Assembly: GCA_031538895.1 (NCBI GenBank)
Contig: JAVKLU010000020.1
Location: 108 to 64,107 of the forward strand
Direction: 5' to 3'
Origin: Burkholderiaceae bacterium
Lineage (GTDB): Bacteria > Pseudomonadota > Gammaproteobacteria > Burkholderiales > Burkholderiaceae
DNA: 64,000 nucleotides
The notes under the pieces were generated by a model. That model did no database searches. It had not been told where the DNA came from and worked only from the letters and a program-made list of their open reading frames with translations. The position numbers and the translations under genes were made by a program. Shown here in pieces: positions 37,044 to 37,231 of the stretch; position 1 is the stretch's first letter, and every line of letters starts with the position of its first letter.

Positions 37044-37136
37044 TTATGCTTGCTTGCTTGCTTGCTTGCTTGCTTGCTTGCTTGCTTGCTTGCTTGCTTG
37101 CTTGCTTGCTTGTAAAAGTGACGATGTTTTTTTCAT
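37044..37136 (-). other. short upstream ORF running through the (AAGC)n tract (candidate phase-variable 5' end of target 1)
   Basis: The ATG at 37136 has AGGA 8 nt upstream. It encodes MKKTSSLL(QASK)n and stops at TAA 37046-37044 with 16 repeat units. It would fuse in frame to the ATG at 37036 with 15 or 18 units. Confidence 0.4.
37048..37111 (-). repeat. perfect tetranucleotide SSR, (GCTT)16 on + strand = (AAGC)16 on the coding strand
   Basis: 64 uninterrupted nt counted directly, ending 11 nt upstream of the annotated start codon of DGR target 1. Confidence 0.95.
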
Positions 37137-37231
37137 GTTGGGCATCCTACTTACAATTAAAGTACGCCCATTGTACAGATACCGCAAAAATTATCGTCCT
37201 TGGCGATAAACTTCCCCGTTTGTTTGATTTA

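Follow-up and report, generated by a model that had tools for sequence, protein, structure and literature searches.

The window, that is, the whole 64,000-nt stretch of DNA that was analysed, carries on its minus strand a large gene of 1471 amino acids (32621-37036), the product of which combines a lipoprotein signal peptide and a Pro/Thr linker with an alpha/beta-hydrolase-like region and, at the C-terminus, an Lcl_C domain of C-type-lectin fold (PF07603, 3e-27). The signal peptide, the lipobox and its invariant Cys were recognised by inspection (...LVGLVTA-C36, Cys36 at 36931-36929, minus strand), and the lipobox is conserved in the homologous contigs L086, L089 and L091. On the same strand lie an Avd-like accessory gene of 176 amino acids (32059-32589), assigned from its position and from sub-threshold matches (PF22296, E 0.12; NF033474, E 1.7e-4), an AAC-rich template repeat (TR, 31840-31982), the gene of a DGR reverse transcriptase (RT, 30435-31850; PF00078, 1.5e-16) and a second small DGR target with an Lcl_C domain (29908-30561), which was identified by TR/VR and domain matches and holds VR2 (~29901-30046). 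VR1 occupies the 3' end of the large gene (32621-32765, minus strand; 32614-32765 in the comparison with TR). All core mismatches between TR and the two VRs fall at TR adenines and are A-to-G, A-to-T or A-to-C changes. Since the RT, the TR and the adenine-only core mismatches are all present at the locus, the lipoprotein gene is confirmed as a genuine DGR target, as the preliminary description had proposed. VR1 is 9 nt and VR2 3 nt longer than TR, the extra length lying within the (AAC)n part, and cDNA replacement requires TR and VR of equal length. Because of this difference in length, present-day homing from this TR onto these VRs is uncertain; either the TR may have slipped or the VRs may have been last written from a different TR.

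Comparison of the window with the homologous contig L086 gave a dN/dS of 0.47 for the whole gene and of 0.23 for residues 801-1200, and the 4.4-kb ORF is intact in both despite ~224 substitutions. The target gene is thus under constraint in the lineage that carries the expanded tract described below. A pseudogene or a permanently dead promoter was ruled out by the dN/dS values together with the intact ORFs. Within the locus, divergence is highest in residues 1-60, where dN/dS is ~1. The Pro/Thr linker that directly follows the lipobox Cys is encoded by two in-frame VNTRs (36863-36928, minus strand; 9-nt x4.6 and 6-nt x5.3), of which the 9-nt repeat differs in copy number in contig L004, with one unit fewer; a Gly run takes the place of the linker repeats in L086 and L003. 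When L086 (1000-3600) was compared with window positions 29900-32600, the target was found to be 94.7% identical but the RT cassette was different (73% identity, no Avd ORF called). The Avd-TR-RT-target2 cassette of the window is 90-95% identical to cassettes in unrelated contexts (JGI 3300078828 and GCA_002479815.1; L091 9600-12702 and L092 6858-10031). DGR cassettes appear, from these comparisons, to be exchanged horizontally behind a resident target.

The AAGC tract and its variation among relatives

A perfect (AAGC)16 tract is present on the minus strand at 37048-37111 (37111-37048 as read), in the context TTTAC(AAGC)16ATAATCCCCTA-ATG, so that 11 nt (ATAATCCCCTA) separate it from the main ATG of the lipoprotein gene (37036-37034). 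Tandem Repeats Finder reported the tract at 37047-37112 with a period of 4, 16.5 copies, 100% matches and 0 indels. A second ATG (37136-37134) is found 100 nt upstream of the main ATG and 25 nt before the tract, and an SD-like AGGA (37148-37145, minus strand) lies 8 nt 5' of it. The perfect 64-nt tract, its distance from the main ATG, the upstream ATG and the AGGA had all been pointed out in the preliminary description, and all their coordinates were confirmed on the sequence. The AAGC repeat is stop-free in all frames and encodes (QASK)n in each of them, a hydrophilic and positively charged stretch. In the present allele the upstream ORF (37044-37136, minus strand) reads MKKTSSLL(QASK)5QA* over 30 codons and stops at the TAA at 37046-37044. 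With 16 perfect units of a length not divisible by 3, the tract is built like those of SSR contingency loci. It is the sole tetranucleotide SSR of >=4 units in the 64-kb window, and outside the AAGC locus a single tetranucleotide SSR, (TTCC)5, was found in 93 other fetched proteobacterial loci (1.37 Mb). The length of the AAGC tract is far above chance expectation.

The (TTCC)5 repeat (L091, 5145-5164) sits at the 5' end of a 298-aa OMP-like gene that directly precedes the homologous DGR target. The called start of this gene is a TTG, and an ATG located 7 nt further upstream would be in frame at 4 or 7 units. At 23306-23335 the window also has a perfect intergenic tandem repeat of 8-nt units (x3.8), 20 nt in front of a gene start; two others, at 24688-24761 and 55848-55912, have units of 21 nt (x3.5) and 14 nt (x4.6), the latter lying between two divergent genes.

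For comparison of alleles, the divergently transcribed YcaO gene (37488-39242) was used as the anchor, and other assemblies were fetched by exact protein look-up. Four contigs, all from metagenome assemblies, span the tract: that of the window (16 units; the reference, haplotype A), L004, L086 and L003. L004 is of haplotype A and shows 0 substitutions against the window in 3,047 aligned nt; the only two differences in this pair are the number of AAGC units, 11 against 16, and one 9-nt linker-repeat unit. L086 has 14 units and represents a second haplotype (B), ~5% diverged in the gene. L003, also with 14 units, is a mosaic of haplotypes A and B; it equals L086 across the tract and the 5' gene region (L003 1251-3250) and equals the window haplotype on both sides. 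L003 and L086 were not accepted as independent 14-unit observations, being identical across 2 kb around the tract. Either the mosaic arose by recombination of co-occurring strains, or the assembly is chimeric; the MAG that contains L003 (GCA_031538475.1) also holds L090, a contig of the sister lineage. Because two repeat-number changes stand against zero point substitutions between L004 and the window, the AAGC tract is hypermutable, and its being a genuine, fast-mutating slipped-strand microsatellite is strongly supported. The unit number differs among close relatives (11, 14 and 16), as it does at contingency loci, so the tract is not invariant, in keeping with the phase variation that had been proposed for it.

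An assembly artefact, in which the length of the tract or its variation was made by short-read metagenome assembly, is highly improbable. All sequences do come from such assemblies, and a tract of 56 nt is, by reasoning only, what a k=55 de Bruijn collapse would be expected to leave, so the 14-unit value is to be read as 14 or more. However, the tract occurs in four independent contigs and two haplotypes, and a second tandem repeat also varies in the same contig pair (L004 and the window). The difference between 11 and 16 units is real because 44 nt is below the usual largest k, and 64 nt cannot come from collapse.

Scans of metagenome DNA for further alleles, with two 20-24-mers conserved across both lineages, gave 0 matches, and a search of the genome collection with the target N-terminus gave no relative. 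The homologue search with the fused N-terminus was swamped by low complexity and returned one distant match, while the same search without the repeats returned only proteins of 30-44% identity. As these N-terminus searches gave only distant proteins, no database protein with a called QASK-repeat N-terminus was found by them. Cluster look-ups placed the full-length target protein in a singleton cluster, and its fragments were absent. Distant hydrolase/Lcl_C homologues carry no SSR at their 5' ends, and the AAGC tract is therefore lineage-specific.

The sister lineage and the promoters in front of the gene

Contigs L089 and L090 represent a sister lineage, which falls within the same 90% YcaO cluster as the window. 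Their homologous site reads ...ATGAAAAAATCATCACTATGTTTACAAGCAGGCAAATAGGCAAGCAAAATCCCCTAATG..., with five imperfect units (AAGC AGGC AAAT AGGC AAGC) at the position of the tract and no indel, and the ATG-to-ATG distance of 56 nt is exactly that of a 5-unit allele. The expanded tract thus derives from the five-unit imperfect proto-repeat seen in the sister lineage, with no indel involved. The upstream ATG is conserved in L086, L003 and L004 as well as in L089/L090, where its uORF runs for 12 codons and no SD precedes it (GTAGAC replaces GTAGGATG); the main ATG of the sister lineage is also SD-less. The upstream ATG with its short ORF is older than the expansion of the tract. The peptide of the upstream ORF is not conserved (T/P, S/P and S/L changes). 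Both expanded haplotypes have the AGGA and the unexpanded lineage lacks it, a pattern that, over the two lineages available, agrees with initiation having moved to the upstream ATG once a proximal promoter was lost.

The promoter scan of L089 returned a single same-strand site at the threshold of the tool, TTTACA-18-CAAAAT, which ends 6 nt before the ATG. This site puts the TSS on the A of the SD-less ATG, the geometry of a leaderless or near-leaderless mRNA, and would be found at a given start codon by chance in ~0.3% of cases. In the window, the corresponding -35-like hexamer TTTACA (37111-37116, minus strand) abuts the 5' edge of the tract, and a -10-like hexamer CATAAT (37043-37048, minus strand) lies at its 3' edge, 6 nt before the main ATG. 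Both expanded haplotypes have kept TTTACA and the -10-like hexamer at the tract edges, and with 5 units the window sequence would score 10/12 as a promoter. Since the two hexamers flank the tract and are 18 nt apart in L089, the tract probably grew inside a promoter spacer. The splitting of a -35/-10 pair by the tract offers a second possible mechanism beyond the frame-dependent one of the preliminary description.

One use of this geometry would be a transcriptional switch or rheostat, in which the tract serves as the spacer of the proximal promoter (TTTACA ... CATAAT), or sets the distance of an upstream element to a -10-only start, with alleles of 11-16 units being OFF or low. The sole above-threshold site in L089 with its TSS on the ATG, the low chance of meeting it there and the retention of both hexamers all speak for such control, as does the start codon, ATG being required by leaderless translation. 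We nevertheless regard it as rather improbable. The spacer is 4n-2 nt long and lies in the functional range of 16-18 nt only at n=5 (18 nt); it measures 42, 54 and 62 nt in the observed alleles, 62 nt being that of the window. These alleles are 6-11 units away from a working promoter, which does not make a reversible switch, and the accessible spacing through which promoter-spacer SSRs phase-vary is not found here. The repeat itself contains no T and can supply no -10, and it gives only 2/6 matches to a -35. Purifying constraint and an intact ORF in the expanded lineage mean, moreover, that expression of the gene must come by a route other than the split proximal promoter. The leaderless promoter geometry is seen at no other window gene, which also led us to reject widespread leaderless transcription as the cause of SD-less starts in the window.

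A relaxed-threshold scan of the 450-nt intergenic region gave only one other same-strand candidate, a sigma-70-like promoter ACGATA-16-TACAAT (37197-37170, minus strand) that matches the consensus at 8/12 positions and is conserved in all three lineages. Conservation falls sharply just downstream of it. A transcript from this distal candidate would include the upstream ATG with its AGGA, as well as the tract. The palindrome TTATCG-N7-CGATAA (37191-37209), read from the sequences directly, overlaps the distal -35; it is conserved and sits in the sole strongly conserved block of the intergenic region between the YcaO and target genes. It may be a binding site for a regulator. An Rfam search of the window found tRNA only.

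The same intergenic region holds one of three window copies of a 143-nt MITE-like element (37232-37374, 52206-52348 and 59249-59391), which has perfect terminal inverted repeats (GGGCACTTCTAT), with 6 TIR matches against 0.16 expected. The copy between the YcaO and target genes is absent in L089/L090, where the flanks join at TAAA; this suggests that TAAA is the target-site duplication of the element. Several short-read contigs end inside the MITE-like element, and the Logan contigs with the YcaO gene all break in it before reaching the tract.

Reading frames, start codons and a possible switch

Frame arithmetic was recomputed for n=3-21 units. When n = 0 mod 3 (15, 18 and so on), the upstream ATG is fused to the ORF as MKKTSSLL(QASK)n HNPL-MTRARR..., and no other n gives a fusion. 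With n = 1 mod 3 the upstream frame ends 7 nt before the main ATG, the present allele (n=16) stopping at TAA 37046-37044, and with n = 2 mod 3 its stop is a TAA sharing bases with the main ATG (TAATG). The frames given earlier, with a stop for 16 units and fusion for 15 or 18, therefore came out the same on recomputation. Every observed non-fusion allele is one unit from the fusion frame. Fusion-frame alleles number 0/3 among the distinct lengths (16, 14 and 11), an outcome with P ~0.3 by chance; with a sample of three being too small, their absence is no evidence either way.

The main ATG has no SD (duplex dG +0.1, against -5.2 kcal/mol for the AGGA before the upstream ATG). This absence had been noted earlier and is real, but it does not mark an unusual start, because about half of the long ORFs in the window have no recognisable SD at their start, many of them being T-rich upstream (e.g. 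1754, 3451, 21442, 28278, 37488, 47123, 57959); the missing SD is thus non-discriminating. SD-independent initiation seems to be common in this organism. The AGGA, in its turn, is statistically unremarkable, with ~5-10% of random positions scoring equally well. Folding of the leader RNA gave z = -0.28, and the leader is unstructured and A-rich. As SD-less starts are common and the leader is unstructured, the main AUG might be used at any n. Further, in both non-fusion frames the stop lies at the main ATG or 7 nt ahead of it, so an OFF state may be leaky via reinitiation, and the differences between states may be small. Synonymous differences between the sister lineage and the window start at codon 4 of MTRARRAQ.NRPS..., because of which the main ATG is taken as the ancestral start. 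The homologous target in L091, an unrelated contig, starts at the equivalent position behind an AAGGAG SD.

On these grounds we tentatively favour a three-state translational switch, or volume control, acting on transcripts from the conserved distal promoter, while giving it somewhat less than an even chance. Expansion to 11-16 units would have split the proximal TTTACA/-10 promoter, and transcription would now start from the distal ACGATA-16-TACAAT, giving an mRNA on which an ATG with an SD stands 25 nt ahead of the tract. With every unit added or removed, ribosomes starting at the upstream ATG would then be shifted to another frame. Alleles with n = 0 mod 3 would make a pre-lipoprotein with a Lys-rich extension of ~30 residues, which signal peptidase II would remove, leaving the mature protein unchanged. 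The fused form appears biologically reasonable, because the Lys-rich extension precedes a complete lipoprotein signal peptide and would hence be cleaved. At n = 2 mod 3, termination at TAATG would favour coupled reinitiation, and at n = 1 mod 3, as in the present 16-unit allele, termination 7 nt upstream should leave expression at its weakest. We expect a gradation of states (fusion, coupled, weak) rather than a clean ON/OFF, since SD-less starts are common, the leader is unstructured and the non-fusion frames end at or next to the main ATG. The ON/OFF contingency switch of the preliminary description accordingly stands in part: the geometry, the polymorphism and the distal candidate promoter agree with it, while no fusion allele was seen, the downstream ATG is ancestral and the upstream ATG predates the expansion.

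The tract could also be a neutral microsatellite, a proto-repeat of the 5' leader that passed the slippage threshold in front of a main AUG used SD-independently at any length. We consider this a serious rival, though somewhat less probable than the translational switch. It would account for a locus in which about half of the neighbouring genes do without an SD, the leader is unstructured, none of the alleles (16, 14, 11) is in the ON frame, the uORF stops adjoin the main ATG in both non-fusion frames and the constraint on the gene persists at tract lengths of 11-16; the 64-kb window, besides, has no other SSR loci (phasome), and the distant homologues have no SSR. Neutrality explains less well why practically no long perfect tetranucleotide tract occurs in the rest of the window or in the 1.37 Mb of comparison loci, why this one lies exactly between a start signal and the ORF of a surface protein, where known systems act, and why the gain of an SD co-occurs with expansion. 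A ribosome-loaded uORF that reads into the start codon or ends on it is, moreover, unlikely to be without effect.

If the three-state translational switch is real, the gene would combine stochastic control of expression level at its 5' end, in-frame variation of linker length and, at its 3' end, mutagenesis of the ligand-binding tip by the DGR. The fuller scenario is of a surface lipoprotein with two independent hypermutation devices: the 3' DGR, and a 5' tetranucleotide on/off/low switch born from expansion of a leaderless-promoter spacer, whereby transcriptional control would have given way to frame-dependent translational control with an SD gained at the pre-existing upstream ATG. This scenario as a whole is doubtful, although it is not far-fetched.

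Comparison with known systems

The closest parallels are the lic1A (CAAT)n and lex2A/oafA (GCAA)n loci of H. influenzae, in which, likewise, a surface-related gene has at its very 5' end, after an alternative ATG, a long and perfect tetranucleotide tract. With lex2A/oafA the AAGC tract shares the motif class, GCAA being AAGC rotated, and changes in unit number would shift the frame in the same manner. The alternative starts of lic1A give more than two expression levels, and those described here could do so as well. In contrast to the H. influenzae loci, the canonical start here is downstream of the tract, no ON-frame allele was observed and no similar loci occur nearby. In opa of Neisseria, with its (CTCTT)n tract, the repeat-encoded residues lie in the cleaved leader, and the mature surface protein is identical in every ON allele; here too, the repeat residues would lie in a cleaved leader. 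The opa unit is, however, pentameric and placed in the hydrophobic core of the leader, whereas the unit here is tetrameric and would form an N-terminal extension ahead of a complete native signal peptide. The GCAA-class 5' coding repeats of H. influenzae encode hydrophilic, positively charged N-terminal repeats (PMC2651432), as the AAGC repeat would.

A second set of parallels concerns promoters and leaders. As in the promoter-spacer SSRs, such as (TA)n of hifA/hifB (the hif case is described in PMC2651432) and the homopolymers of porA, opc and fetA in N. meningitidis, the tract is bounded exactly by a -35-like hexamer on one side and a -10-like hexamer on the other. Unlike those tracts, which have units of 1-2 nt and stay within a few nt of functional spacing, this one has a 4-nt unit and a spacing of 42-62 nt, well beyond any range in which a promoter would work. 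It also resembles the 7-bp repeats of hmw1A/hmw2A in H. influenzae and (TAAA)n of nadA in N. meningitidis, in being a non-coding or leader SSR beside an adhesin-type gene; in hmw and nadA, the length of the leader or upstream repeats modulates output and does not act as a strict ON/OFF (PMC12721329, PMC2791445, PMC2651432). An RNase III element or a NadR-like operator arrangement is a feature of these known systems, whereas the palindrome at 37191-37209 is a candidate only.

The setting differs as well. H. influenzae is a host-adapted pathogen, whereas the host of this locus appears to be an uncultivated environmental betaproteobacterium; the best matches of its YcaO protein in the genome collection (67-71%) are to Gallionellaceae and Methylophilaceae MAGs. 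To our knowledge, SSR contingency loci have been described almost exclusively in pathogens and commensals adapted to a host, and a tract of this kind is unusual in an uncultivated betaproteobacterium.

A DGR is generally regarded as the only mechanism that diversifies its target gene. A DGR target with an SSR switch at its 5' end is not known to us, and a full-text literature search found, within the collection searched, no paper linking DGR targets with SSR switching. The target described here shares with the DGR target lipoproteins LdtA of Legionella and TvpA of Treponema a lipoprotein signal peptide, adenine-specific changes in a C-terminal variable region of C-type-lectin fold, and neighbouring Avd-like and RT genes; it differs from targets of the LdtA/TvpA type in that its TR and VRs are of different length. 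If the switch works, bet-hedging of display can be layered on hypermutation of what the protein binds, and expansion of a promoter-spacer tract is a concrete route to such a switch. If it works in a free-living, uncultivated bacterium, loci comparable to those of H. influenzae and Neisseria evolve outside the host-pathogen setting too.
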